Below are positions 15,919-31,153 of a stretch of 64,000 bases of DNA, piece after piece; positions within the stretch are counted from its first letter, which is position 1, and the number at the start of each line of letters is the position of its first letter. Origin of the DNA: Candidatus Latescibacterota bacterium (GTDB taxonomy: Bacteria; Latescibacterota; UBA2968; GCA-2709665); assembly GCA_965116875.1 (NCBI GenBank), contig OZ220733.1, forward strand, positions 1,856,001 through 1,920,000, in the 5' to 3' direction. The notes below the pieces were generated by a model. The model was not told where the DNA came from. It saw nothing but the letters and a program-made list of their open reading frames with translations, and ran no database searches. The translations under genes and the position numbers were made by a program.

Positions 15919-16755
15919 TTTCGAAACAACCCTCCAATAATGTCAAAGTTCCAGGGTCACCAGCCCCCGGCAAGGGATGATGGCATCGTATCTGTCACTC
16001 GCCCAAACTGACGAGCAGACGCTGCTGTGAAGGTGGGGCGGACATTCCTGTCTGCCCACATTGCCGACTCTGCGCGCCTGAACTGTCATCCAGAGACCCG
16101 CCATACCGACGAAGCGTCTCCATCGATTGGCGCCGGAACCCTGCACCGCTCCCTGAGCTTGTCGAAGGGTCGGGGCAGGGGTGCAGATCAGGAAGCGATA
16201 AATATACCGTAAACTTCCACCCGGAACAAAAAAGTTTCCCGCAACGTGCTGGCGACTTCTCCCTGGCGCGGAGACCGGCTGTGTTGGATGTCAGGTCCGG
16301 ACCAATGGTGTAAACTTAGGAATCATCCAACGCCTTAGCCGAACAAGCCGCGGCACTCGATTTAAGGAGTCCCAGATACAATCTGCCCTCGATCACGACC
16401 TGATCCACCAACATCCGGAGCGAGGGCATCCTGCCCTCGAACTTCGCGTCACCCACCCGTATTCCCGTCGAGACATTGTTGCTACCATCGCATCTGTTCG
16501 GCCCGACGTATGGGACCTCTTGGCAATTGTTGGCGCGATGCAGGTTGCGTTGCATCACCTGGAACATTACATTCATTTGTAGAAGTCGCATTAAAGAAAA
16601 AGGTTCCCCCCGATGACAAGCGCCCATGGGGCTCTCTCCAACGGTGGAGTGGTCGGGGGGGTCGTTTTCTGGTAGCATGCGGTGAAAACCAGCGCTATGA
16701 AGAGCCCGTCCGGTCGGTATGCCATTCTTGCGCCTCGCTGCGAATTTTCCGGAAT

Positions 16756-17706
16756 ATGACCACCATGAATCTGGTTCAGAGTACAGTCAGAATGCTATTG
16801 GTATTCATACTTGTATTCTCTGCAGGATTAGAGACGAGAGCGGAGGATTCAGACGCCGACTCGTCGCTTACGAAGTTTGAGATAAACCAGCGCGGATTGC
16901 TTCACATAAAGTATCTGAAAAACGCGTATATCGAAGGGTCCAGGGAGAAACTCTCAAGCTATCTGAACGCGTGGGTTCATTGGACGCAACCGGTCACCCG
17001 GGAAGAGTTGGATCGCAAATTACCGTTCGACCGACACGCAAATGACATCCACCAGTTACTTTATAGGCCAACGAACCTGAGATGGTTCACAAAGTGGTTC
17101 CAGGGAAAACGCCCCGAACCGCCGTTTTACAAGAAGATCCTGACATATATCGGCGTTCCGGACGACGAGAATTGGGCTGAGAAAATATACGGCGAGGCGC
17201 GATACTCACTCATACAAAATGAGATCAAGATTTACATCGTTGAAACGCTTCCGGAACCCGACGATAGATCCTTTGATACGGAGCGCGGATTAGAAAAGCA
17301 GATGAAACATGCCATTGCTCACCTGCGTATTCTGGATTTCAGACCTCAAGTCAAACCGCATGGGCGCACGCCGGTTTATCTCGTCCCAACTTTGAAAGGC
17401 ATACTCGAAAAGTTCCTGAGATCGAAGAAGATCCTGTCCAACGAAACCGGCCTGCAGTCTACAGACCAGGATTCGCTCACGAACAGACGGCTCGAATTCC
17501 TGAACCAGGAACTGAAGATCTTGCGGAGCCACTGGGAGGGGTGGCACTTCGAAACCCATCCCCGTATCGAAAGAATTGTCTTCAATCACGATCTCTCAAA
17601 GGCCATCGCCGAATACCGGATCAAATACACCGGTGGAAGGGCGTACCTGAACCGGACCGCTGACGGATGGGAACTGGTGAGTGCGGGATTGAGGTGGATA
17701 GAATAG
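16756..17706 (+). CDS. Hypothetical exported protein
   Basis: Long ORF with signal-peptide-like N-terminus (RMLLVFILVFSAGLETRA); no recognised family. Confidence 0.65.
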   Translation: MTTMNLVQSTVRMLLVFILVFSAGLETRAEDSDADSSLTKFEINQRGLLHIKYLKNAYIEGSREKLSSYLNAWVHWTQPVTREELDRKLPFDRHANDIHQLLYRPTNLRWFTKWFQGKRPEPPFYKKILTYIGVPDDENWAEKIYGEARYSLIQNEIKIYIVETLPEPDDRSFDTERGLEKQMKHAIAHLRILDFRPQVKPHGRTPVYLVPTLKGILEKFLRSKKILSNETGLQSTDQDSLTNRRLEFLNQELKILRSHWEGWHFETHPRIERIVFNHDLSKAIAEYRIKYTGGRAYLNRTADGWELVSAGLRWIE

Positions 17707-18037: not shown

Positions 18038-18071
18038 GTGGTTTTTCTGTTACGGAGGAGCCAGATAAAGA

Positions 18072-18104
18072 ACCCCCGAGAGAAGAATCTCCGGGGGCTT
18101 TTTG
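18072..18104 (+). terminator. Rho-independent terminator after relB/dinJ
   Basis: cccccgagag...ctccggggg followed by cttttt. Confidence 0.6.
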
Positions 18105-18175
18105 TCGTGAGTCTTCTGACTGCAAGCCGTTTCAAGTTCTACGCATCGGTGTATAATAACGTGGGCAAGTACGAA

Positions 18176-19354
18176 TTATAATATAGTTGCTTCGAGGGAT
18201 ACGGTCGCTAGGGCCTCTTTTACCAGCCGAGCCGCGGTTTCGATTTCTTCGTGAGTCGTGAATCGTCCAAAACTGAAGCGGATGGAAGCCTCGCTCTGTG
18301 CGTCCGACAAGCCGAGTGCCCGGAGCACGTGGGACGGTTCCGGAATGCCAGTTGTACATGCCGCGCCGGTAGACGCCGCGAGTCGGGGCTGGAGGACGCC
18401 GAGGATATCTTGCGCATCGCAACCTTCAAAGCCAATATTGGCGTTGCCAGGGTGGCGGCTCCTGCCGGATGGTCCGTTGACGGTGATCGGGAAGTCCCCT
18501 TGTTCGAGCAAGCGAATGAACGAATCCCGCAAGCCAGCTACCCGCGTGCGCTCCTCCTTCGCTTCGTCGCTGACTATAATCTCCGCAGCGGCACCCATAC
18601 CAACGCAAAGCGGCAACGGGACCGTGCCGGAACGAAGCCCCTCCTGCTGTCCGCCGCCATAAATTATCGGCTCGATAGAGTCCTTGAAATCGCGCCGGAT
18701 ATACAATACGCCGATACCCTGTGGGCCGTAAAACTTATGCGCCGAAAGGCTGATCAGATCGGCGTGCCCCGCAAGCCCGCTCACGTCCATCGCACAGGGC
18801 GCTTGTGCCGCGTCACAATGAAACAGGATGCCGTGTAACGTGAGCAGTTCGGCAATCCGAGGAATGTCCTGAATGGTCCCCACCTCATTGTTGACGGCCA
18901 TAACTGAGGCCAACAGGACGCGTTCGTCCACGAGCTTCTGTAATGCATTGAGTTCCACAAACCCTTCGTGGTCCACAGGAATGGTCTCAACGGTGATACC
19001 CTGATTCTCAGATATAGCCCTGGCCGCGGCCAAAACACACTTGTGTTCGATAGCACTGACCAGAATGCGGTCACGACCGCTTGGCGCGCGACGGACAAGA
19101 CCCTGAAGTGCGAGGTTGTTCGCCTCGGTAGCACCGGACGTGAAGACCACCTCATCGGCGTCTGCGCCAATCAGACCCGCAACCGATTCCGCCGCCTCGC
19201 GAACGGCCTCGCCGGCTCTCCAGCCCACAATATGGTCGCTAGAGTGGGGATTGCCGAACGATTCGCCCCAAAACCGGGGCATCTTTTCCTGTATCTGCGG
19301 ATCTACAGGCGTTGTCGCCTGATAGTCGGCATAGATCGTTTTCTGTCTGTTCAT
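18176..19354 (-). CDS. Cysteine desulfurase (IscS/DndA/SspA-like), divergent from the Ssp-like operon
   Basis: YADYQATTP, FTSGATEANN, DAAQA, SAHKFYGP (PLP Lys), RSGT, STGAAC (catalytic Cys). Confidence 0.92.
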   Translation of the reverse strand: MNRQKTIYADYQATTPVDPQIQEKMPRFWGESFGNPHSSDHIVGWRAGEAVREAAESVAGLIGADADEVVFTSGATEANNLALQGLVRRAPSGRDRILVSAIEHKCVLAAARAISENQGITVETIPVDHEGFVELNALQKLVDERVLLASVMAVNNEVGTIQDIPRIAELLTLHGILFHCDAAQAPCAMDVSGLAGHADLISLSAHKFYGPQGIGVLYIRRDFKDSIEPIIYGGGQQEGLRSGTVPLPLCVGMGAAAEIIVSDEAKEERTRVAGLRDSFIRLLEQGDFPITVNGPSGRSRHPGNANIGFEGCDAQDILGVLQPRLAASTGAACTTGIPEPSHVLRALGLSDAQSEASIRFSFGRFTTHEEIETAARLVKEALATVSLEATIL

Positions 19355-19542
19355 GTTGAGTTCGGCGAATAGGATTTTCCGATCAAGATGTCTTCCCCAA
19401 TAAAATCAAATGCTTACTTCGATTTCGGCTGAATTTGGCTTCTGTTTCGTGTAGCTCCTGGAGCCTGCCGCCAGTTCATTCTTGACAATACTCAGTTTTG
19501 TGACTATTGTCAAGCTGGACGTTTCATCCAGTAGGAGAGACG

Positions 19543-20508
19543 ATGGGTCGAGGTCCCCTATACAAAGAAGGCTACCAACCGCAACTGTCTGGGCACGAGA
19601 CGTTTCCCCTTCGTTATGGTTGGCTCAAGAAGGCATATGATGCCGTTCGGGAAACCGAAGGAGACGAGAACAATCTGTCGGTATTTACGGCAGACTATGC
19701 AATCGCACGATTCGGGGTCGGCAAGAACATGGTTGCTTCAATGCGCCATTGGGCCATTGCGTCCGGAGTCATAGAAGAGGTTACTGGCGAACGACGTATC
19801 CGATGTACAGAAATCGGCGATTTGATATTCAGTGAGGGAGGTCTCGACAGATATATGGAAAACCCAGCGACATCGTGGTTCATCCATTGGCGCCTCTGCG
19901 GTCGGAAAGATAAAACGACGTGGTTCTGGGCATTTAATCACTTCCCGGCGCTCTTGTTCGAACGCGATGAGCTAGCCCGAGGCGTAGCCAATCTGACCGA
20001 AGAAATAGGGTGGGCACGGTCGTCCCTGGCTACAATCAGACGCGACGTGTCTTGCTTTGTACGCACATACGTCGCGCAACCGATGTCGCGCCAGGCGAGC
20101 TTTGAAGACGCTCTCGAATCGCCCCTTACGGAACTTGGTCTTATCAGGCCGGTTGGCCGACGTGACGGTTTCAGATTCGTGCGTGGTCCAAAGCCGTCGC
20201 TTGGCGCCGGCGTATTCGCCTATGCTGTGACCGATTTTTGGTCTCGTTATTCTAAGAACGCTAACACCCTGTCCTTTGAAGCACTGTCGCACGAACCTGG
20301 GTCACCGGGCAGGGTATTTCTTCTGGCCGAGAATGATCTTGTCGACCTCTTGGGACTGCTGGATACCACTACGGAGGGTATCTACCGGTGGTCAGAGACT
20401 GCCGGGCTGAAGCAGCTCATCCGGGAACGCGAGCTTACGACCGTGGAAAAATTGAATCTCTTGAAGGTGAATTACAATGGTTCAGTTCGCGAGGAGGGCG
20501 CTGCGTGA
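19543..20508 (+). CDS. sspB: DUF4007 family protein (SspB-like)
   Basis: SGHETFPLRYGWLKK, FGVGKNMVASMRHW, DRYMENPATSWFIHW, ESPLTELGLI, SPGRVF; AGGAG RBS. Confidence 0.85.
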   Translation: MGRGPLYKEGYQPQLSGHETFPLRYGWLKKAYDAVRETEGDENNLSVFTADYAIARFGVGKNMVASMRHWAIASGVIEEVTGERRIRCTEIGDLIFSEGGLDRYMENPATSWFIHWRLCGRKDKTTWFWAFNHFPALLFERDELARGVANLTEEIGWARSSLATIRRDVSCFVRTYVAQPMSRQASFEDALESPLTELGLIRPVGRRDGFRFVRGPKPSLGAGVFAYAVTDFWSRYSKNANTLSFEALSHEPGSPGRVFLLAENDLVDLLGLLDTTTEGIYRWSETAGLKQLIRERELTTVEKLNLLKVNYNGSVREEGAA

Positions 20509-23500
20509 AAGTATTGGCTGATCGCGTGCAGATAAGCCGCCGCTTCCGAAGGTCAATTCGAATCGACACAGACCTTTCCGACCCTACGGCTCTCACGGGT
20601 TTCATCTGTCCGCGGTCCTCCGCTCTCGTACTCGAGACGATGGCACAGCACGTCCAGAAAACCGGACAGGCCGCATTTACTTGGACGGGACCTTATGGCT
20701 CTGGCAAGTCGAGCCTCGTGGTAGCGCTCAGCGCGGTGCTGAATGGTGATGCCGATCTCAGAAACTCGACTGCCCGGATGCTAGGTTTTCAAACAGCCGA
20801 GGCTCTCTGGGCTTCTTTGCCTCCCCAAGCCAAGGGTTGGCGGATCCTGCCCGTCGTGGGAAGGCGCGATCGACCCGCCCAAGTGGTCGGTGAGGCGATT
20901 GAGCGTGCTCGTTTTGTTCGAAATGGCACAACTGGCCAGTGGAGCGACGAGGCCGTCTATGACGTCCTGTTAAGGGTCGCACGAAGGAATCCACGCACGT
21001 ATGGCGGCCTTGTTGTCTTCTTGGACGAAATGGGAAAATTGCTGGAAGGCGCCGCGTACGAGGACACGGACATCTTCTTTTTCCAGCAATTGGCGGAGAT
21101 TGCCTCGCGAAGCAACAATCGGCTGATTGTCGTCGGGATTCTGCACCAGGCGTTTGAAGAGTACGCTAACCGGCTCTCACGTGAGGTGCGGGATGAGTGG
21201 TCAAAGGTTCAAGGTCGATTCATAGACCTGCCGATCAATGTAGGACCTGACGAGCAGCTCGAGCTCTTGGGACGGGCGATAGAGAGCGATCAAGTGCCTC
21301 GAGAGGATACGCCACTCTTCAAGGAGGTCGCCGCACTCGGCCATCACTCGCAAACGTCTGAAGTGTTGCGAAGATGTTGGCCGTTGCACCCAATCGTGGC
21401 TTGTTTGCTCGGACCCATCTCACGGCGGAGTTTCGGCCAGAATCAGCGCAGCATCTTTGGTTTTTTAAACTCCACAGAACCTTTCGGATTCCAGGACTTC
21501 CTGAGAACCGCCACTGAGCGCGATCTGTATATGCCGGAGCTGCTTTGGGACTACCTTCGGGCGAACCTGGAACCTTCCATTATGGCTTCTTCGGACGGTC
21601 ACCGATGGGCGATGGCAGTTGACGCCCTGGAGCGAAGTCACGGGTCAGGCGGCGATGAGCTTGAGTTGCGATTGCTCAAGACGATCGGCCTGGTCGATCT
21701 GTTCCGAGAACGATCGGGCCTCGTGCCGAGTCTGGAACTTTTGATTCTAGCCCTTCGTGATCAAAGTGCTACAGCCATTCAGATGGCGCTGAGCAAACTG
21801 AAGGACTCCTCGCTGGTGATCCACCGGAAATTCAGCAATGGATACAGCATCTTCGAGGGAAGCGACTTTGATATCCGGCGGGCCGTAGATGAGGCGTTTG
21901 GAGAGATTGACCGGATTGACCATATCCGCCTTTCGGATCTCGCTGGGCTTCAGCCCGTGATTGCCAAGCGTCATTACCACGAAACCGGTGCGATCCGATG
22001 GTTCGACACAACTGTCGTTCCGTTGCGTGACCTTGAGGACGTCGCGGGCGCACGTGATATAAGTAACGGCGCAATGGGATCGTTCTTTCTCGCGCTACCC
22101 ACACCGGGCGATTCTCCCGAAACCGTCGAACGGATTGCGGAACGTACGGTTAGAGGAGCAGAGGACGGCGATGTTATTGTGGGCATCCCCAGGCGATCGA
22201 CGTGGACAATTACGACTCTTGCGCGAGAGTTGCTTGCACTCGAGCATGTTCGGGACAATACGCCGGAGCTTCGGGGGGACCGTGTTGGGCGGCGCGAAGT
22301 TGAGGACAGCATTGCGGACCTGCAGAGCAAAATCGAAGTTGAACTGGACCGAGCTATCGAGAATGCCCAATGGCAGGGAAAGGAACTTCGGTCAAAGTGG
22401 CTCGATCATGCCGAAATAAACAGTCTCGTTTCAGATTTTGCGGACGAAAGATTCAAAAAGGCACCTAAACTCAACAATGAGCTATTAAACCGAATCAGAC
22501 CCTCCAGTAACGCAATCGCTGCGCAAAATGCCTTGCTTCGACGGATGGCGCTATATGAAGGCAAGCCGCGGTTGGGTATCGAGGATTTTCCCGCGGAAGG
22601 CGGCTTGTTCGCCTCTCTTCTTAAGGCAAGCGGATTATACCAGAATACGCCAGATGGGTTGCGTTTTGTACCGCCTGAACTTGGAGATGACCCATGCAAC
22701 CTCGTCCCCGCTTGGGAGGCTGCGAAAGAGTTCCTGGAAGCCAAATCCCACAGATCAGTGTCGATTGCGGAGATCTACGATCTTTGGCGACGAGCTCCGT
22801 TCGGCATAAAGGACGGATTGTTGCCTATTTTAGCCCTGGCATTTACACTCTCAAAACGCGACGTGCTCGCATTCTATAGGCAGGGGATCTTCCAAGCATT
22901 TTTTTCGGATTTGGACGCGGAGGTTTTGGCTAAAAACCCGACTGATATCCAGGTGAGATGGATGGACTTATCAGCGGTGTCGCGCCGGCTGCTGGCAGAT
23001 ATGGCAGATATCGTGCGCGATCTGGATTCAGCGAACACCTTGCCGAACCTGGAACCGATTGACGTCGCAAGAGGGCTCGTGGCGATCTACGATCGGCTGG
23101 CACCGTGGGTCGGTCGGACGCAGCGTCTGTCGTCTAACGCCAAGCGTATTCGACAGCTTCTGAAGCAGGCCAACGACCCAAATCGACTGATCTTTGACGA
23201 TTTGCCACAGGTACTAGATGATTCTTCAGTCATACTCGCAGAGATCGACACAGACGAGATTGCTAACCGAATTCGAGCAGGCTTGACGGAGTTATGTCAG
23301 GCCTTTCCCACAATGCTGAATCGGATACGCGAAATGTTGCTTGCGGAGTTGCAAGTGCCAAACGCTTCCACGTCGATGCTGGCCGAGTTGCGTGCGCGTT
23401 CGGCCAACATACGCGACCTCGGCGGGGATCATCGCCTCGAGGCATTTGTCGTTCGCGTAGCGCAGTTTGAAGGCAGTGAAGAGGACGTGGAAGGTTTGGC

Positions 23501-23882
23501 TGGGATGGCTGTCAACAAACCACCTCGAGATTGGGTCGATGCGGACATCGATCGGGCGTCGATCGAGCTTGCTGCTCTAGCCCAACGGTTCATACGTGCG
23601 GAAGCGTTCGCTCGCGTGAAGGGCCGGAAGGACAAGAGACACGCAATGGCAGTCGTTGTCGGTATGGAAGGGCAGCCGAATCTGGTGCATAACGAGTTCG
23701 AGATTACCGACCAGGATCAATCCGCTGTAAGAGAGTTGATTGAACGTCTAGACGGAACATTGAGAGGCAACGGCCAGGAAAGACACAACGTAATTCTCGC
23801 CGCTTTGGCCGAGTTAAGTGCTCGATATCTGGATTCCGGAAACTCCGCGAAACCGGGCGAGGGCAGGAGGTCCAATACGTGA
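20505..23882 (+). CDS. sspC: Large P-loop ATPase (SspC-like)
   Basis: RRSIRIDTD, Walker A GPYGSGKSS, Walker B VFLDEMGK, ILHQAF, WPLHP, FGQNQRSIFGFL, APFGIKDG; GTGA overlap with DUF4007 gene. Confidence 0.82.
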   Translation: MKVLADRVQISRRFRRSIRIDTDLSDPTALTGFICPRSSALVLETMAQHVQKTGQAAFTWTGPYGSGKSSLVVALSAVLNGDADLRNSTARMLGFQTAEALWASLPPQAKGWRILPVVGRRDRPAQVVGEAIERARFVRNGTTGQWSDEAVYDVLLRVARRNPRTYGGLVVFLDEMGKLLEGAAYEDTDIFFFQQLAEIASRSNNRLIVVGILHQAFEEYANRLSREVRDEWSKVQGRFIDLPINVGPDEQLELLGRAIESDQVPREDTPLFKEVAALGHHSQTSEVLRRCWPLHPIVACLLGPISRRSFGQNQRSIFGFLNSTEPFGFQDFLRTATERDLYMPELLWDYLRANLEPSIMASSDGHRWAMAVDALERSHGSGGDELELRLLKTIGLVDLFRERSGLVPSLELLILALRDQSATAIQMALSKLKDSSLVIHRKFSNGYSIFEGSDFDIRRAVDEAFGEIDRIDHIRLSDLAGLQPVIAKRHYHETGAIRWFDTTVVPLRDLEDVAGARDISNGAMGSFFLALPTPGDSPETVERIAERTVRGAEDGDVIVGIPRRSTWTITTLARELLALEHVRDNTPELRGDRVGRREVEDSIADLQSKIEVELDRAIENAQWQGKELRSKWLDHAEINSLVSDFADERFKKAPKLNNELLNRIRPSSNAIAAQNALLRRMALYEGKPRLGIEDFPAEGGLFASLLKASGLYQNTPDGLRFVPPELGDDPCNLVPAWEAAKEFLEAKSHRSVSIAEIYDLWRRAPFGIKDGLLPILALAFTLSKRDVLAFYRQGIFQAFFSDLDAEVLAKNPTDIQVRWMDLSAVSRRLLADMADIVRDLDSANTLPNLEPIDVARGLVAIYDRLAPWVGRTQRLSSNAKRIRQLLKQANDPNRLIFDDLPQVLDDSSVILAEIDTDEIANRIRAGLTELCQAFPTMLNRIREMLLAELQVPNASTSMLAELRARSANIRDLGGDHRLEAFVVRVAQFEGSEEDVEGLAGMAVNKPPRDWVDADIDRASIELAALAQRFIRAEAFARVKGRKDKRHAMAVVVGMEGQPNLVHNEFEITDQDQSAVRELIERLDGTLRGNGQERHNVILAALAELSARYLDSGNSAKPGEGRRSNT

Positions 23883-24721
23883 ATGACGGCAATAGGGAAA
23901 TGCACGTTTTGGGATTGTCAGGTGGCCGCGATAGTGCGGCACTCGCGGTCTACATGCGACAAAACCATCCGGAACTTGACATTCACTACTTCTTTACCGA
24001 TACTGGCAAAGAATTGCCGGAAGTTTACGAGTTTCTGGTCAAGTTAGAAGGATTTCTGGGCAAGCCGATCGAGCGGCTGAATCCGGACCGCGATTTCGAC
24101 TTCTGGCTAAAGCAATACAACAACTATCTACCGTCGGCCCAAAGCCGTTGGTGCACGCGGCAACTCAAGCTGCGGCCTTTCGAGCGGTGGATCCGCCCAA
24201 TTATGGATAGTGGCGTAACGGTGTATAGCTACGTTGCCATCCGTGCGGACGAGGAATACCGGGAAGGCTACACCTCGAAGCGCGATAGCCTTGTGGTAAA
24301 GCTCCCGCTAAAGGATGACGGGATTGACAAGGCCGGTGTGTTGGAGATTCTGGAGGGTGCGGGACTGGGATTGCCGCAATATTACGAATGGCGGACCCGC
24401 AGTGGATGCACGTTTTGTTTTTTCCAACAAAAGATCGAATGGGTGCGATTGATGGAGCGACACCCGGAGTACTTCGAGGAAGCCAAACGCTACGAAAAGA
24501 ACGCCATCGATCACGGCTCTCCCTTCACCTGGAGTCAGGGAGAATCACTCAACGATCTCGCGAAACCCGAGCGCATTGCGCAAATTGAGGATGAACATAC
24601 TAGGCGGCTGAAGAGGATGCGCAACAAACTTCAGGTCAACCCACTTCGTCCGGATGCAGAACCAATCGACATAGATGACCTTTATGGTAAGGCAAAGGTC
24701 TGTCTGGCATGTCACAAATGA
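23879..24721 (+). CDS. sspD: PAPS reductase family PP-loop protein (SspD/DndC-like)
   Basis: PP-loop LSGGRDS, FTDTGKELPE, RWCTRQLK, RSGCTFCFFQ, C-terminal CLACHK; GTGA overlap with the ATPase gene. Confidence 0.85.
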   Translation: MNDGNREMHVLGLSGGRDSAALAVYMRQNHPELDIHYFFTDTGKELPEVYEFLVKLEGFLGKPIERLNPDRDFDFWLKQYNNYLPSAQSRWCTRQLKLRPFERWIRPIMDSGVTVYSYVAIRADEEYREGYTSKRDSLVVKLPLKDDGIDKAGVLEILEGAGLGLPQYYEWRTRSGCTFCFFQQKIEWVRLMERHPEYFEEAKRYEKNAIDHGSPFTWSQGESLNDLAKPERIAQIEDEHTRRLKRMRNKLQVNPLRPDAEPIDIDDLYGKAKVCLACHK

Positions 24722-24883
24722 AAGTAACGACAGAAGACGCGTACGAGTTCTTGGGGTATGTTATTTGGTCGCCCAACCCGCGATGCTAGAGTTGCGAAGA
24801 AAGCAACACACTTCTGATAAGCGAGAAACTCCGAGCGACTGTGGGTCAAGTTGTTGATTATCAAACTTGCGGACAACTCAAAG

Positions 24884-26497
24884 ATGGCAAACACGACTTT
24901 TACAGGATTCGGCCTGACGGTTTCTCAGTTTTTCGACTCGCTTTCGGATCATGAACTGCGAAGGTTTCTGGATTCCGGTGTTTTGTCAGTCTTGGATGCA
25001 ATCTTCGACGGGCGGGTACAAGGCGAAGATCTGCGACGTATTGCTCAAACGCTTGTTGATCTAGAAGTACTCATAGGAGATTCGCGAGGAAGAAGGCTTG
25101 TCCTTCGATTGGTACCGGATGAGAAGAAACCAGAATTGGAAAGTTATGTCGAGCGCAACATCGTCCCAAACGACGCGGACAAATGGTCAGACGCTGAAGT
25201 GAGGCGAATGCGCGACTTTTTCGCATTAGATGAAGAGCGAGTCGTTCCCCCAGCCGTACCGCCAACCGAGCCAATTTCAGCCTGTTATGGATTATTTGAA
25301 CATCAGAGGAACGCCGTTCGAAGATTGAAACCGCTATTGACCGAGGATGAACGCCGTGCGGTTCTACACTTACCTACGGGAGTCGGCAAGACTCGCACGG
25401 CAATGCACATCGTGTGCGATATGTTTCGGACACATGAACCATCAGTCGTCGTTTGGTTGGCATCAGGAAGAGAACTGCTTGAGCAAGCAGTGTTCGCCTT
25501 TAAGGAGGCGTGGAAGCATCTCGGCAATAGACCGCTTCAGATTGGTACTATGTGGGGTGAACGGACGCCGGTTTTAGACAGCTTCTCGGATGGCTTTCTG
25601 GCCGTAGGCCTAGCGAAGGGCTGGACGTTGATTTCCCGTACTGATCCGGATTGGGCGTCACGACTGTCCCAGCGAGTTCGTCTCGTGGTCTTTGATGAAG
25701 CGCACCAGAGTATCGCTAGGACCCATCGGTGGATCACTGACGACCTTACTCTCGACTTCCGATGCGCACTGTTGGGGCTAACTGCCACACCTGGGAGAAC
25801 TTGGGCCGATATTGACACGGATGGCCAACTTGCCGATTTCTTTTGCCGCAATAAGGTCACGCTTGACGTTCCGGGAAGTAACCCAATCAAGTACCTCATA
25901 GAAAACGAATATCTCGCACAACCGATTTTCCGAACACTTCTTTCCGAACCAGGCATCAGTATCAACAATAAAGAGTTGACCCGGATTGCAGGATTGTTGG
26001 ATATCCCACTGGAGATCATATCCTCATTATCGATTACCAAACAGTATATTGCCGCTGTGCTTGGTGCGATTGTGCAACTGCTCCAGGCTGGCCACCGGCG
26101 CGTACTTGTTTTCGCCGCGACTGTCGATCAAGCGCAAATGCTTACCGCGATTCTGGTCGCACGCGACATCCGAAGTGAGGCTGTTACTGGCGTGACGCCC
26201 TTCCGTATACGGGATAGCGCCATCCGATCCTTCAGGGCAGATGACGACACACCAATGGTCTTGGTTAACTACGGAGTGTTGACCACTGGTTTTGACGCGC
26301 CCAAGGCGAGTGCAGCCGTAATTGCCCGCCCGACGAAGTCCTTAGTGCTTTATAGCCAGATGGTCGGACGTGTAATCCGTGGGCCGAAAGCGGGAGGAAC
26401 GAAGACCTGCGAAATCTTAACGGTCGTCGATCCTAGCCTTCCAGGATTCAGCGATGTGGCAAAGGCATTCCTTAATTGGGAGGATGTATGGCAGTGA
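24884..26497 (+). CDS. SF2 DEAD/DEAH-box helicase (ResIII-like + helicase C-terminal domain)
   Basis: LFEHQ, LPTGVGKT, DEAH, GLTATP, VLVFA, VLTTGFD, QMVGRVIR. Confidence 0.9.
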   Translation: MANTTFTGFGLTVSQFFDSLSDHELRRFLDSGVLSVLDAIFDGRVQGEDLRRIAQTLVDLEVLIGDSRGRRLVLRLVPDEKKPELESYVERNIVPNDADKWSDAEVRRMRDFFALDEERVVPPAVPPTEPISACYGLFEHQRNAVRRLKPLLTEDERRAVLHLPTGVGKTRTAMHIVCDMFRTHEPSVVVWLASGRELLEQAVFAFKEAWKHLGNRPLQIGTMWGERTPVLDSFSDGFLAVGLAKGWTLISRTDPDWASRLSQRVRLVVFDEAHQSIARTHRWITDDLTLDFRCALLGLTATPGRTWADIDTDGQLADFFCRNKVTLDVPGSNPIKYLIENEYLAQPIFRTLLSEPGISINNKELTRIAGLLDIPLEIISSLSITKQYIAAVLGAIVQLLQAGHRRVLVFAATVDQAQMLTAILVARDIRSEAVTGVTPFRIRDSAIRSFRADDDTPMVLVNYGVLTTGFDAPKASAAVIARPTKSLVLYSQMVGRVIRGPKAGGTKTCEILTVVDPSLPGFSDVAKAFLNWEDVWQ

Positions 26498-28425
26498 GTG
26501 AATCAGTCGAACAACTGGAATTTTCAATAGTCGATACGAGAATGACAGTCGAGGCAATGCGTGACAGCGGTTATAAATCAACGACTCATGCGCTTGCAGA
26601 GCTTATCGATAACTCCATTGAGAGTGGAGCTACCGCTATCGAACTATTCGGCGTGAGTCGGCGCGATAGCCGCACTGGAAGATTTACACTGAAGGAATTG
26701 GCTGTCCTCGACAACGGCGAGGGTATGGACAAAGACACGCTCCGGGGCAGCCTCCGTTACGGTCATGGGACTCGACAACAGAGAAATGGTATCGGCCGTT
26801 TCGGACTTGGTCTTCCGAATTCGTCAATGTCACAGTCAAGACGTGTAGACGTGTGGTCCTGGAAGTCCGGAGTGACAAACGCGTTGCACGTGCAACTCGC
26901 CATTGACGATGTGGAAGGCGGTGCCCGAGAGATCAGTGAACCCACGCTCCAACGCATCCCAGATGTCTACCGCGACGCAACCCGAATCGTTCTTGGCGAT
27001 TCCGGAACTCTGGTAAGATGGAGCGATCTCGATCGAGTCGAATGGAAGCAGGCGACAACGACTTTCAAGCACACAGAGACCCTGCTTGGACGCATGTATC
27101 GGCGATTCCTTGTAAATCCATCAGAGAGACTGCACCCCAAAGACTTGAGAACCGACGAAATCGGACAGAGGCGCACTATCACGTGTATTCCGATTCACGA
27201 GAAGGAAGGGTTGATCGAAATACAGCACGCCGACATCGTCGAAGTAAGGCCGAATGACCCTTTGTATCTGATGCCAAGCACCTCGTGCCCGGAGGACTAT
27301 GGCCCGGGGCGAATGTTCGTGGAACTTGACACAAGTCCTTTCTCGGTACCGGTGAAATTCAATGGCAGGGAATTTGAGATTCGTGTAAGAGCGAGCTACG
27401 CCCGTAACCATGTTCGTGACCCGCTTGCGCCTGACGCGACATGGCCAGAGGCGTGGAAAGGAAGGGACGCAGGTCATACGCCGTGGGGCAAGCACGCGGA
27501 TCAGAATATGGGAATCTCTCTGATTCGGGCCCACCGTGAAATACAGCTCGACGACTCTTGGGTCAGTGGCGACGATCCGAGAGAGCGCTGGTGGACAGTG
27601 GAGGTCGACTTCCCCACAGCTCTCGACGAGGTCTTTGGCGTCACAAACAACAAGCAGGGCTCGACGACGTTTCAGCGACTCGCACGTTATGACTGGAAGC
27701 GCGAGCAGCTCCCAGGCGAAGTGTCAGTCGGTGACGTTCGTCGCCGGATGGAAGCGGACGGCGATTCACGAGTGCATCTCCTGGATCTCCGTAGACAGAT
27801 CGAAAGGGCAATCACGCTGATGCGGAAACAGGTAAGGCAGACAAAGAAGGCTCGGAAGCGCCATAAATTGGATGAAGATCAGAAGGCTGATGCTAAGGCT
27901 ACGGCCGCAATAATTCGCCGCCTGCTAGAGGGTTATCAGGGAGAGTCTGATCGAGAAGGAAAGCTCGGTACCGAAGAGGAACAACAAGAGAAACAAATCA
28001 AATCTCTGATCGAAAAACATCGACATGACAAAGCCGATGCACTTCAAAGAGTAGCCGAAACAATCGAGGCCAAGAGCCGAGTTCGTTGGATTCAATCGGC
28101 GCAATCGAGCCCAGCATTCTTCGACGTCGAACCACTGCCCAACGTGATTCAAGTCGCGCTAAACACGAACCATCCTGTACACTCACACCTTTTTGACATC
28201 ATGAACCCCGATACAGACGATCTGACCGAGGATGAAGTTCGTGAGAGGCTCGCAAAAGCGTCAGCGGCATTCCGCATTCTCGTGTATTCTTGGGCTCGAT
28301 ATGAGGAGGAGCAGACTGAACGTGCGCGTCGTCAGGTGCGAGATGCGCGTCTGGAGTGGGGAAAGTACGCGGAGGAGTTTCTTGATGAAGACGATGGCTC
28401 AGTTGTCCCAACGGATCTGGTCTAG
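26488..28425 (+). CDS. MORC-type GHKL ATPase
   Basis: RDSGYKSTTHALAELIDNS, DNGEGM, IGRFGLGL, GTLV; coiled-coil region and C-terminal LNTNHP motif; overlaps the helicase stop. Confidence 0.85.
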   Translation: MAVSESVEQLEFSIVDTRMTVEAMRDSGYKSTTHALAELIDNSIESGATAIELFGVSRRDSRTGRFTLKELAVLDNGEGMDKDTLRGSLRYGHGTRQQRNGIGRFGLGLPNSSMSQSRRVDVWSWKSGVTNALHVQLAIDDVEGGAREISEPTLQRIPDVYRDATRIVLGDSGTLVRWSDLDRVEWKQATTTFKHTETLLGRMYRRFLVNPSERLHPKDLRTDEIGQRRTITCIPIHEKEGLIEIQHADIVEVRPNDPLYLMPSTSCPEDYGPGRMFVELDTSPFSVPVKFNGREFEIRVRASYARNHVRDPLAPDATWPEAWKGRDAGHTPWGKHADQNMGISLIRAHREIQLDDSWVSGDDPRERWWTVEVDFPTALDEVFGVTNNKQGSTTFQRLARYDWKREQLPGEVSVGDVRRRMEADGDSRVHLLDLRRQIERAITLMRKQVRQTKKARKRHKLDEDQKADAKATAAIIRRLLEGYQGESDREGKLGTEEEQQEKQIKSLIEKHRHDKADALQRVAETIEAKSRVRWIQSAQSSPAFFDVEPLPNVIQVALNTNHPVHSHLFDIMNPDTDDLTEDEVRERLAKASAAFRILVYSWARYEEEQTERARRQVRDARLEWGKYAEEFLDEDDGSVVPTDLV

Positions 28426-28431
28426 CGCTAT

Positions 28432-29334
28432 ATGCCATTAGAAAATGAAACCCAAGGAGGTCGAATTCGTGATCTCTTCGAAAACGCGGTCCACTCGGTG
28501 TGGGTTATTGCGCCGTTCATCAAGGTCGATGCGCTGAAGTCGTTGCTTGAGGTTATTCCCGCAGGTATGCATCTTCGCTGTGTTACGCGTTGGCTACCTA
28601 AGGACGTGGCGGCGAGTGTATCTGATCCAGATATCTTGAGTCTACTTGATGAACGGGGAGATTTTACGCTTAGCCTCGTAGATAAGTTGCACGCAAAGCT
28701 GTACATCGCCGGCACACGTTGTCTGGCTGGTTCGGCAAATGTGACTCTTGCAGGGCTGGGAGAAGCAGACGAGAGCAATATTGAGGTCCTCGTAGAGACA
28801 ACAACTAATGATCCGGGAGTTTCTGCTACGCTTGACGAAATTTCTCTGGTTGAATACCCTGCAACGGCAGAACTTGCTCAGACGGTTCGTCGCATGGCGG
28901 AAATTGTATCCAGCTCAATATCATCTGCGGTTGACCTTGAAATCCCATGGTTTCCAATAAGCAGACGACCGGAAGATGCGTTTGATTTTTACAAGCGCCC
29001 GCCGGACGGTTCCTTAAAGGCTGTCGACCGCACTTTGCTTGCAGACTTGGCACACTCCAATCTCCAGCCGGGTCTAGACGAAAATGGATTCCGATCAGCG
29101 GTCCGTTCTCTGCTTACGGATATACCAATGTGTAAGGGATTGCTTGGGACTATGGAAGACAGGACGATTACTCGCGCCGACGCTCACGCTTTTCTGGTGG
29201 AATTTTCAGGAGAGGATATTTCGACCCAGGACCTATGGCTTGCATTCGTTAATTGGGTGGCACACTTCTTCCCAGACGAAGTCATGAAACAAGAAATATC
29301 TGAAATCGCTCTTCGGCGTGCTCAAGCAATATGA
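28432..29334 (+). CDS. Phospholipase D-like (HKD) nuclease domain protein
   Basis: IAPFIK, VTRW, LHAKLYI...AGSANVT (single HxK motif, BfiI/Nuc-like), then an unknown C-terminal domain. Confidence 0.82.
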   Translation: MPLENETQGGRIRDLFENAVHSVWVIAPFIKVDALKSLLEVIPAGMHLRCVTRWLPKDVAASVSDPDILSLLDERGDFTLSLVDKLHAKLYIAGTRCLAGSANVTLAGLGEADESNIEVLVETTTNDPGVSATLDEISLVEYPATAELAQTVRRMAEIVSSSISSAVDLEIPWFPISRRPEDAFDFYKRPPDGSLKAVDRTLLADLAHSNLQPGLDENGFRSAVRSLLTDIPMCKGLLGTMEDRTITRADAHAFLVEFSGEDISTQDLWLAFVNWVAHFFPDEVMKQEISEIALRRAQAI

Positions 29335-29582
29335 GTTGAGAGCTAGGCCAAGTTATGGCGCAGTCACGATTGCCCGTGCCCATATTGATTCATTGAATCT
29401 CCCCCAATCTCACCGAAATCGGTAAATGTGCCGAGGATTGTCTCAGTGGGAGATTTGATTACTACCATCATTCTTTGAACACGAACGTGATGCATCGCAT
29501 AACACAAACCCCCGAGAGAGTTATCTCCAGGTGCATTTTGTGTGCTTTCGGTAGATTGATGTGGCAGTCTATTCCCGCCGTG

Positions 29583-29880
29583 TCAAAACGAAGCACCGAG
29601 AAGGAAGTAGGGAACGGCGCCTCTTGGGTCGGAGAACCCATATCCGGCGCCGGCACGGAAGCGGAATGGCCTGTAAGGGAAACCGTATTCGTAGACGAAC
29701 TCGGTGCCTGCGGAAAGGAGGGTCTTAGGCGTCGCCTGCGGGGAGTTGTCCCACCCCCGGGCGTTGCCTGAATCGGTGAACAGCGTGAGAAAGACGCGGC
29801 CGAAGTGCAGCAGCGGAGTTCGGATGGCAGGGTTAACCCCCGCACGGGCCTATAAACGGAACTGCAGGGACGCGTACCAG
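29583..29880 (-). pseudogene. Diverged duplicate of the 3' end of the beta-barrel OMP gene at 34197-37184
   Basis: Translates to NPAIRTPLLHFGRVFLTLFTDSGNARG...RAGAGYGFSDPRGAVPYFLLGASF*, versus NRAIRTPLLHFDRAFLTLFADAGNAWG...RAGAGYGFTDPKGAVPYFLLGASF* in the intact gene; in-frame TAG at 29850-29852; no start. Confidence 0.85.
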
Positions 29881-29941: not shown

Positions 29942-31153
29942 TTACTTCCACAACCGCACGATGAATCGACTCTGTTCCTCTATGAGATCGGGCTCTGTAC
30001 CATTGTGGGCGCGCATACCGGGAATGATTTTGTTCCGAACACCCATTCCTCGGGCATCCGCGTAACCGTAGTCACGCATTATGTTTACCAGCGTTTGGTT
30101 GCGGGCGTAGCGGGCGCCAACTTTCATCCCCTCGGTAGTCACGGTGTTGGGCAGACGGCCAGGGCTTGTAATCTCCAAACGATCAGAAAAGATCGAGAGC
30201 ATAATATCGGTACCAACGATACTATAGTCCCGGTGAACGAGTGCGTTCACAATGGCTTCACGAACGACACTCTCCGGGTAGTCCCAATGGTCGATCCTCC
30301 GAGCGTTCTCCAATCGGGATCTCGGTATTGTGTTGCGCCGCACAAAGTCCCACGCCTGCTCAACGAGTCCGGATTCTACGACGTTCTCGTGCTGGCCTAA
30401 CGGAACCATTGGGCCGCGGAGGTTCTCGTCGGCGCGGGTTGCGTAATCAGGTTCATTACCGGGGTAACACAGCGCACGGATTCCTGATTGCGGTAGGTAG
30501 CGACTAGGTGCTCCCCCAAAAAGCAGGACACCGTCGATCGTGGCGACTTGGTGGCCCGCGGAAACAGTCATAAGGTCGATATTCCGTAGCAATGTCTCCC
30601 AACCCTCACGATCGTCCTCAGCAGGGTGGGTCCCGCTGAGGACGCGAATCAGGTAATCTCGTAGTCGGCGATGATCGAAAGCGTCGAATCCGGCCCCAGG
30701 TACCGGTTTCAAACCGTAATGCAGCCGGCCTGAAGCCTGAAACATCCGCTCAAGTTCGTCTTGGCTAGCTTCTTGTGAGGTGTTGCCGACGCGGATGAAA
30801 TAGGTCTTGCGTTTATTGTGAACACGTGCATACGGCTTGTCGGGTCCGGTCGTAACGCGAACCGCAAGAACATCTCGTCCTGGTTCTGCATTCCTTACCC
30901 AAGAAAGAAACGGGGTTACCGGGGGGGCGATCTTCACCCTGCAAAGTTCTGCAACCCACTCTTCCAGATTGTCACGGGTGGTCCCCGAAATTGCTCCGTC
31001 GTCTTCGATCCCTAACAGGACAACCCCGCCGTCCAAGTTAAGCAAGGCGACTAGGCCTTTGGCGACTTCATGATTGGCTAAGTCGTCGCGCTTGAACTCG
31101 ACACCTGAATCTTCGTCGTTGGCGATCAGGGCTTGCAGTTCGCTGTGGTTCAC
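29942..31153 (-). CDS. Schlafen/AlbA_2 domain + RecG-C-terminal-like (HATPase_c_4) protein
   Basis: EDSGVEFK, ALLNLDGGVVLLGIEDDG, YFIRVG; REAIVNALVHRDY, DRLEITSPG, RN, GMG. Confidence 0.85.
   Translation of the reverse strand: MNHSELQALIANDEDSGVEFKRDDLANHEVAKGLVALLNLDGGVVLLGIEDDGAISGTTRDNLEEWVAELCRVKIAPPVTPFLSWVRNAEPGRDVLAVRVTTGPDKPYARVHNKRKTYFIRVGNTSQEASQDELERMFQASGRLHYGLKPVPGAGFDAFDHRRLRDYLIRVLSGTHPAEDDREGWETLLRNIDLMTVSAGHQVATIDGVLLFGGAPSRYLPQSGIRALCYPGNEPDYATRADENLRGPMVPLGQHENVVESGLVEQAWDFVRRNTIPRSRLENARRIDHWDYPESVVREAIVNALVHRDYSIVGTDIMLSIFSDRLEITSPGRLPNTVTTEGMKVGARYARNQTLVNIMRDYGYADARGMGVRNKIIPGMRAHNGTEPDLIEEQSRFIVRLWK

Follow-up and report, generated by a model that had tools for sequence, protein, structure and literature searches.

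The locus described here lies in a 64,000-nt stretch of a Candidatus Latescibacterota genome (contig OZ220733.1, positions 1,856,001 to 1,920,000 of the forward strand), hereafter called the window; coordinates given without a locus label are window positions. The cassette under study, at 18071–29541, contains the four ssp genes of a DNA phosphorothioate (PT) modification module, followed by a triad of genes for a superfamily 2 (SF2) DEAH helicase, a MORC-like GHKL ATPase and a phospholipase D (PLD) nuclease. The listing of open reading frames (ORFs) has all seven, first the Ssp four and then the triad, where the initial annotation of this DNA had placed them, at 18176–29334. We consider it probable that the cassette is a PT-based modification–restriction system, with the triad serving as its restriction half in place of the known effectors SspE or SspFGH.

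Organization of the cassette

The first gene, sspA, encodes a cysteine desulfurase on the reverse strand (18176–19354) and is divergent from sspBCD; its product matched SspA in PADLOC at E 2.9e-127 and Aminotran_5 in Pfam at 1.5e-75. Between sspA and sspB is a palindromic promoter-like element with TTGACA-17-TATTGT on both strands (19482–19513), called by consensus match only; in a promoter and terminator scan of the region that included this type of element, site counts were not above those in shuffled sequences. All further genes of the cassette are on the forward strand. The sspB ORF (19507–20508) encodes a DUF4007 protein (DUF4007 2.6e-86; PADLOC SspB 4.6e-103), in which the DUF4007 match begins at residue 27, and the gene probably starts some 70 nt into the ORF. 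The next gene, sspC (20505–23882, in an ORF at 20388–23882), encodes a large P-loop ATPase related to BrxC/PglY (PADLOC SspC, 1244.9 bits). Its GTG start overlaps the sspB stop in a GTGA overlap at 20505–20508, with a GAGGAGGG box upstream. A 4-nt overlap joins sspC to sspD (23879–24721), which encodes an ATP pyrophosphatase of the PAPS-reductase family (PADLOC SspD 3.4e-135; Pfam PAPS_reduct 3.8e-7).

The triad begins with the gene for the helicase, which is RadD/XPB-like (24851–26497, with an alternative start at ATG 24884; ResIII 6.8e-18, Helicase_C 1.9e-13, DEAD 3.3e-12). It continues with the gene for the MORC-like ATPase (26488–28425, ORF from 26476; HATPase_c_3 3e-20) and ends with that for a two-domain PLD/HKD nuclease (28432–29334), identified by a PLDc_2 match at 1.7e-5 and by its structure model. 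When the MORC start is taken as ATG 26488, the helicase and MORC genes overlap by 10 nt, and MORC and PLD are spaced by 6 nt. The genes had been described beforehand as tightly linked, and this holds within each of the two blocks; it does not extend across the gap of about 130–160 nt between sspD and the helicase gene.

The seven genes are enclosed by two copies of a 35-nt direct repeat, found by repeat comparison on the forward strand: a left copy with a hairpin plus T-run (18071–18105) and a right copy (29507–29541), 11,436 nt apart and identical at 29/35 positions (83%). The repeat occurs just twice in the whole 5.45-Mb genome, and the copies bracket exactly sspA through the PLD gene, which suggests that all seven came in together or are marked off as a unit. 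None was found in the other loci compared. Where a genome of the same genus lacks the ssp genes, its alignment to the window begins at 29510. The cassette is part of a low-G+C island at about 16–34 kb, with a G+C content of 0.51–0.56 vs. about 0.60–0.65 on both flanks; a search of the island borders for a tRNA gene found none.

An SspABCD module without its known effectors

All four Ssp proteins are encoded together and matched their PADLOC models at E 1e-103 or better, and Pfam agrees, so that the SspABCD assignment made in the initial annotation stands. SspA is IscS/DndA-like, with scores under the NCBIfam equivalog cut-offs. The SspC match spans ORF residues 43–1092, and the BrxC model was also matched, at 5.9e-117. 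SspD has an SGGRDS PP-loop, and its cysteines C92, C177, C180 and C278 are invariant in the alignment. According to the accessible text of PMC8092258, IscS and SspBCD are sufficient for PT modification, and the marks are read by separate effectors; the same text reports SspE or SspFGH at only about 15% of 2,678 sspBCD loci.

None of these effectors was recognized here. The triad proteins matched no SspE, SspF, SspG, SspH, PglZ or BrxL model in PADLOC, a library that includes SspE and SspF models. Ten proteins of the island were scanned. None matched SspE in PADLOC, and the combination of DUF262 and DUF1524-HNH domains that defines SspE was not seen among them; none matched SspF, SspG or SspH in PADLOC or an FtsK domain in Pfam, as SspFGH would entail, given that PMC8092258 describes SspF with a Walker A motif and SspH with a C-terminus like FtsK/SpoIIIE. 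BREX type 4 was likewise not recovered, with no PglZ or BrxL among the ten and with SspC and SspD matching BrxC and BrxP only as weaker relatives. PADLOC, Pfam and NCBIfam found no DNA methylase among the same ten proteins. The genome, a single contig of 5.45 Mb that is 97.7% complete, had no match to three SspE models, to DUF262 (PF03235) or to DndB; one SspF model also had no match, but was equally silent in every control genome. The outcome expected beforehand, PADLOC matches to SspBCD and none to SspE or SspFGH, was thus obtained.

The triad proteins

The identities first proposed for the triad proteins, an SF2 DEAH helicase, a MORC-type GHKL ATPase and a PLD protein with a single HxK motif, were borne out by Pfam, by invariant motifs and by structure models. 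In the helicase, Walker A (P175–K180), D282, E283 and H285, and Q503, G506, R507 and R510 are invariant in 25 sequences, as are the TAT motif and motif VI. The C-terminal tail is strongly conserved (LPGF..AF.NWE..W), and no Pfam family matched the N-terminal domain (about 145 aa). Sequence matches in the PDB were to RadD (8.3e-19), SauUSI (2.4e-7) and XPB (XPB/Rad25; about 1e-5).

The ATPase model, with a mean predicted local distance difference test score (pLDDT) of 80.7, shows a GHKL domain plus transducer (residues 14–455), a long helical region and a small conserved C-terminal domain. The GHKL motifs (N-box, G1 and G2) and the S5-fold transducer were found in the Pfam matches, the alignment and the model, and E38, N42, D75, G79, G101–G108 and K389 are invariant in 27 sequences. 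In VIA-align comparisons, the best Z scores were with MORC3 (20.1), MORC4 (19.2), SMCHD1 (18.9), Hsc82 (17.4) and MutL (16.9); residues 14–455 superimpose on the MORC3 ATPase with a root-mean-square deviation (rmsd) of 3.9 Å over 297 residues. All six PDB sequence matches were to human MORC2. MORC-like is a fair description of the protein, which may belong to MORC proper or to a paraMORC family; SMCHD1, Hsc82 and MutL lie within 1–3 Z units of MORC3 and MORC4. The only Pfam match in the C-terminal part had an E of 0.076, below the cut-off.

The PLD model (pLDDT 92.7) consists of one HxK domain (residues 1–140) and an all-alpha C-terminal domain (146–280). By VIA-align, the closest relative of the first domain is the PLD/nuclease domain of SauUSI (Z 15.7, rmsd 2.4 Å over 142 residues), followed by Nuc (13.3), BfiI (13.3) and NucT. 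Each chain has a single HxK...GSxN motif, and 75 family members all keep H87, K89, S101 and N103; at an E threshold of 1e-10, the two-domain family comprises 641 cluster representatives. A sequence search of the PDB with the PLD protein gave nothing meaningful. The C-terminal domain has no match in Pfam, and the best hits of its fold search in VIA-align (N.BspD6I, Z 4.8; 3bhw, 4.5; BrxA, 4.2) were below the level expected by chance for helical domains and amount to no more than a lead. Queries of the ESM Atlas with this domain and with the helicase N-terminal domain returned scores under 0.9. That either might be a copy of the DNA-binding module of SspB was also considered and found no sequence support: profile–profile comparison of the PLD and SspB families gave a probability of 0.1, and the helicase family gave nothing with the SspB or the PLD family.

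Linkage of the triad to ssp genes

Close relatives of the MORC protein were collected from one genome per species, giving 51 loci, of which 13 with only a short GHKL match were left out and 38 kept. In the 38 loci, the MORC protein is 37–80% identical, and the record titles span many phyla. SspB and SspC were located by tblastn 3.0–10.0 kb from MORC in 36 of them, and the other two are cut off upstream of the helicase. SspD was present at a coverage of at least 70% in 33/38 loci, and all three triad proteins were present at a coverage of at least 80% in 32/38. The ssp block is inverted or on the other side in four loci. Among the relatives of the ATPase, the best 120 clusters are 72–100% identical and nearly all 644–647 aa long.

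A second sample was made up of 12 plasmid records with a full-length MORC homologue (33–38% identity), of which 11 were inspected, the twelfth being from a second strain of one species. These plasmids come from cultured Cyanobacteriota, Alphaproteobacteria and Bacteroidota, Roseobacter litoralis and Mesorhizobium onobrychidis among them. A gene of the PAPS-reductase family lies within 12 kb in every one of the 11, and DUF4007 is annotated in eight. On the plasmid of Pannonibacter phragmitetus BB, the gene order is exactly that of the window. The triads of Trichormus variabilis ATCC 29413 and Geminocystis sit between sspD and the cysteine desulfurase gene, and in Roseobacter, Aminobacter and Mesorhizobium the ssp and triad blocks are convergent.

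The third sample was of 168 genomes from the window's own phylum, with a MORC homologue in 24 (at 26 places) and DUF4007 in 46. Fourteen places have a MORC of at least 37% identity: ten with DUF4007 within 5–11 kb, three on contigs shorter than 4 kb and one that is solitary. Conversely, the triad lies beside DUF4007 in 10 to 13 of the 46 DUF4007-bearing genomes. The co-occurrence of MORC homologues with ssp genes, part of a check proposed in the initial annotation, was seen at 36/36, 11/11 and 10/11 assessable places in the three samples. With the same gene set recurring in dozens of genomes, the arrangement in the window is far more than a chance one.

Two kinds of elaboration were seen at these loci. 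At L003:6528–8394, L006:6623–8400 and equivalent positions, optional gene pairs, both of which are lacking in the window, lie between sspD and the helicase gene: one pair encodes a DUF262/GmrSD_N protein (NsnA-like, 4.9e-29) and a 239-aa protein without a family, and the other a small GIY-YIG-like protein and a DndB-like protein. On a plasmid of Agrobacterium tumefaciens CFBP7129 (L055/L056), one SspABCD is flanked by a triad of helicase, MORC and a 359-aa protein and by a second block of hypothetical genes, which ends in a 1836-aa protein with an FtsK/SpoIIIE domain and is SspFGH-like by description. On that plasmid, two effectors may share one modification module.

A related four-gene form

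A more distant MORC subfamily, of 31–36% identity, was found at 12 places (L087–L098; for example, L087:7703–12501) in 11 genomes of the phylum. Here the genes form a four-gene cassette for an SspD-like protein, a short helicase, MORC and PLD, without SspB and SspC and often beside the chromosomal SMC gene. The subfamily is never near DUF4007, and seven of the 11 genomes have no DUF4007 at all. The helicase lacks the N-terminal domain, and the C-terminal half of the PLD protein is different. An ORF of 289–308 aa lies directly upstream in all 12 places and is SspD-like in 10/12 by tblastn; the one such ORF scanned by PADLOC matched SspD at 2.1e-13. In seven aligned sequences, the four conserved cysteines are kept and GAGxQS replaces the SGGxDS PP-loop. 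The presence of an SspD-like gene ahead of these remote triads indicates that the link between the triad and the PAPS-reductase family is older than that to SspB and SspC.

Exchange between the ssp genes and the triad

Trees were built in 'quick' mode under LG+G4 for the 26 of 39 rows with full-length ORF calls for all five proteins used. The tree of SspB plus SspC has four deep lineages which, mapped on the triad tree, require seven changes, the minimum being three. Well-supported triad clades mix Ssp lineages: L003/L006/L033 group with L004/L005 (SH-aLRT 99), and L015 with L016 (98). The Ssp proteins are 51–84% identical to those of the window in lineage-A loci and 24–53% in others, whereas the triad is similar to roughly the same degree in both groups, with median identities (helicase/MORC/PLD) of 64/68/53% in lineage-A loci vs. 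71/74/61% in the other loci. In a genome of the same family as the window's, SspA–D are 75–88% identical to those of the window and the triad only 30–44%. The ssp and triad halves have thus repeatedly recombined and yet been kept together, as a functional dependence between them would predict and chance co-location in islands would not. The comparisons also point to recent spread of the effector half by horizontal transfer. Across L002–L038, MORC is 57–80% identical in many phyla, far above the accompanying SspB and SspC.

Three genomes of the same genus have SspABCD at the window's chromosomal site, with other genes after sspD. One of them, G054, shares 89% DNA identity with the window over sspA–sspD, and SspD is 92–93% identical. 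After sspD, these genomes have a small protein and a DndB-like protein, unrelated proteins of 811–817 aa, or a T5orf172 protein; in a fourth genome of the genus, the ssp genes are absent at that site. This makes the position behind sspD a variable slot. The 811–817-aa proteins (L120, L121 and L122) were tried as SspE, and no PADLOC model matched them at an E of 1e-5 or better. GHKL matches in Pfam were seen for three of the four, two weak (about 2–3e-4) and one clear (HATPase_c_3, 6.9e-15), and no similarity between the protein with the clear match and the MORC of the window was detectable. These proteins may be additional Ssp partners.

Near-constant adjacency to ssp genes across phyla, swapping of modules and the variable slot after sspD together support the placement of the triad as an alternative effector of the Ssp system, as proposed in the initial annotation, insofar as this can be read from comparative sequence data. 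The same evidence bears on the possibility that the triad is an independent defence system, a self-contained, three-piece, ATP-dependent type IV-like restriction enzyme that merely shares islands with Ssp. Such an enzyme would be in keeping with the best fold match, SauUSI, a modification-dependent enzyme without a partner methylase; one triad (L086) is solitary, and the low-G+C island of the window also holds another defence-like pair, of Schlafen/AlbA_2 and TrlF/Ppl-like type. We nevertheless hold this explanation to be very improbable. Adjacency at nearly every assessable place in several phyla would then be coincidental, the pairing has outlasted switches of both Ssp lineage and orientation, cyanobacterial plasmids carry the triad within the ssp operon itself, and even the remote 31–36% subfamily has an ORF directly ahead of it at every place, SspD-like in 10/12.

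Gene damage also differed between the two halves. A damaged triad with SspB and SspC kept was found in 6/38 loci, and a truncated sspD with an intact triad in 1/38 (L028), as would be expected if the triad is the dispensable and potentially self-toxic half. At L021:6776–11890, a 1704-aa ORF joins SspC to MORC, and sspD and the helicase are missing.

Proposed mechanism

We infer a defence role for the triad and propose the following mechanism. By family precedent, SspA would supply sulfur, and SspB, SspC and SspD would write single-strand PT marks on the host chromosome. The helicase would translocate on DNA, by analogy with SauUSI, PbeA and type I/III enzymes. ATP binding would cause the MORC-like ATPase to dimerize and to clamp or loop the DNA. 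With one HxK half-site per PLD chain, two chains would have to pair to form an active center, which makes closure of the clamp a natural licensing step: closing on unmarked DNA, it would unite the PLD chains and license cutting, and PT marks on host DNA would prevent or abort it. Either the N-terminal domain of the helicase or the C-terminal helical domain of the PLD protein could recognize the mark; both domains are specific to the Ssp-linked forms.

PT might act on such a machine by blocking it, as in restriction–modification and SspFGH, or by arming it, as in SspE. The six damaged triads against one truncated sspD lean to a PT-blocked machine, whereas L028 and the solitary triad L086 speak rather for a PT-armed one. 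In its full form, the second alternative has the triad inert alone, switched on by PT in host DNA and then nicking or degrading incoming DNA. SspE works by PT activation, according to the available text of PMC8092258, and loci such as L028 and L086 would be easier to tolerate if the triad were harmless without PT. However, neither the cassette nor the genome encodes a DUF262-type PT-stimulated NTPase, the greater frequency of triad damage fits the asymmetry of restriction–modification better, and SauUSI, the nearest structural relative, cuts alone. We therefore regard PT activation as unlikely, and the decay pattern leads us to lean to blocking.

A different role would be in the marking itself, with the helicase and MORC placing, spreading or renewing PT and the PLD protein removing or repairing it. 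This would explain partial and shifting PT patterns, and partial PT occupancy is known from the accessible portions of PMC8092258 and PMC12914056; in the four-gene relative, which has no SspB or SspC, the motors would need to do the targeting. Yet IscS–SspBCD alone makes PT in E. coli (PMC8092258, available text), just 10 to 13 of the 46 phylum genomes with DUF4007 have an adjoining triad, the triad is the part that decays first, and the nearest relatives of the PLD domain are DNA endonucleases. We consider a marking role very improbable too, and if anything slightly more so than an independent defence system.

Several observations weigh against the interpretation of the cassette as a PT-based modification–restriction system with the triad as its restriction half. 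If the triad were a simple restriction enzyme against which PT protects, its intact state beside a truncated sspD at L028 should kill the cell, barring a second sspD. A full-length triad, L086, lies about 1.9 Mb or more from the two DUF4007 genes of its genome, with an insertion sequence and a Septu-like pair as neighbors. The 130–160 nt between sspD and the helicase gene leave co-transcription of the two blocks open, and no signal stood out in this gap in the promoter and terminator scan. The PLDc_2 match scored 25.1 bits, just under the Pfam cut-off of 27 bits, with the fold confirmed by the structure model; in the PLD protein of the window, the acidic position of HxK(x)4D is G94, where the family consensus has D. 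Finally, the 'quick' LG+G4 trees contain some long branches, and single nodes are not to be over-read.

A more specific and tentative version of the PT-blocked machine is that MORC ATPases read and enforce a backbone epigenetic mark: the three-protein machine would scan DNA, and ATP-driven closure of the MORC clamp would assemble two half-site PLD chains into a nuclease only where PT is missing. The four-gene cassette would then be the minimal form, a self-contained system of sulfur marking and restriction whose motors also guide the marking enzyme. Taken together, we think these two proposals rather doubtful. If they were true, mark-dependent silencing by eukaryotic MORCs would have a precedent in prokaryotes, and an effector could be named for part of the ~85% of ssp loci without a known one.

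Relation to known systems

The system shares its modification half with SspABCD–SspE and SspABCD–SspFGH, and in both cases an effector module follows sspD; the Agrobacterium plasmid, with a triad plus a three-gene block containing an FtsK-domain protein, indicates that several effectors per SspABCD are possible. The effectors themselves are unrelated. DUF262/DUF1524, a match to SspF and an FtsK-like SspH are all missing, and the cassette encodes an SF2 helicase, a GHKL ATPase and a PLD nuclease instead.

A conceptual precedent is from 2008, when Iyer, Abhiman and Aravind predicted a restriction–modification theme of MORC, an SFII (Rad25-like) helicase and an HKD or restriction endonuclease (REase) nuclease, according to the accessible text of PMC2292703. 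As in their MORC/paraMORC systems, an ATPase with GHKL and S5 domains adjoins an SFII (Rad25/XPB-like) helicase and a nuclease in the window, and that text likewise proposes looping or clamping of DNA by the ATPase. The neighborhoods of 2008 differ in that they are marked by DNA methylases, where the window has SspABCD; neither 'PAPS' nor 'DndB' appears as a term in the available text of PMC2292703.

ATP-dependent restriction enzymes that are PLD–helicase fusions are also known, namely SauUSI and PbeA. In the available text of PMC10853773, PbeA is an HKD nuclease fused to an SF2 helicase and is accompanied by the CxC ABC ATPase PbeC, the DndE-like PbeD and the small PbeB. Both enzymes resemble the triad in combining a PLD/HKD nuclease with an SF2 helicase, and PbeA also accompanies a PT system (DndCDEA–PbeABCD). 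In the window, by contrast, nuclease and helicase are separate, with the MORC gene between them, the PLD protein has an extra helical domain, and the PT system is Ssp, not Dnd. The triad thus resembles an enzyme of the PbeA/SauUSI type split in two around a MORC gene.

The initial annotation had named SspFGH, PbeABCD and DISARM as described systems to which the triad might turn out to belong. The best PADLOC matches of the triad proteins were weak and partial: the helicase with PbeA (1.1e-20), the ATPase with MzaB (1.2e-15) and the PLD protein with ZacB (3e-10) and DrmC (1.1e-7). The helicase matched PbeA over the helicase core only, and PADLOC found no PbeB, PbeC or PbeD match among the island proteins. 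For DISARM, MZA and Azaca, the weak matches to DrmC, MzaB and ZacB likewise covered shared catalytic cores. The MzaB score in NCBIfam was 67.6 bits against a cut-off of 850, and library scans of the island proteins gave no match to DrmA, DrmB, a methylase or other Mza or Zac parts.

A literature search, with subscription-only papers and supplementary tables outside its scope, found no paper that combines Ssp with a MORC/GHKL effector or with a helicase plus PLD effector. In this sense, the claim that no described system has this combination holds. The kind of system is less exotic than the claim implied, considering the MORC–helicase–nuclease theme of 2008 (PMC2292703, accessible text), the layouts of PbeA and SauUSI, and how common the system is. 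The cassette thus seems to represent a PT-based defence system with a widespread three-protein effector, in which the modification half is an ordinary SspABCD and the effector is apparently undescribed. The triad would supply an effector for a sizeable share of the sspBCD loci without a known one, loci that the models of defence-finding programs would list as orphan Ssp modules. It would also be a way into the function of prokaryotic MORC ATPases, which has been in question since 2008.

Other features of the island

At the left edge of the island is a 398-aa ORF (16510–17706, forward strand) with no match in Pfam, NCBIfam or PADLOC. It was considered as an integrase, a call that could not be made with no family in these libraries; a counterpart that is 73% identical occupies the same place in a genome of the same genus. 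To the right of the cassette, a 256-nt repeat with copies at 29583–29838 and 34197–34452 (80% identical) duplicates the 3′ end of a gene for a 1085-aa PD40/Omp85-like protein. The repeat flanks the second defence-like pair, encoded on the reverse strand at 29942–31153 and 31163–33859. The pair consists of a protein with Schlafen AlbA_2 and HATPase_c_4 domains and a PHP plus AAA ATPase of the TrlF family, with a family match of 494.7 bits (cut-off 350) and a PADLOC match to Ppl at 9.4e-42.

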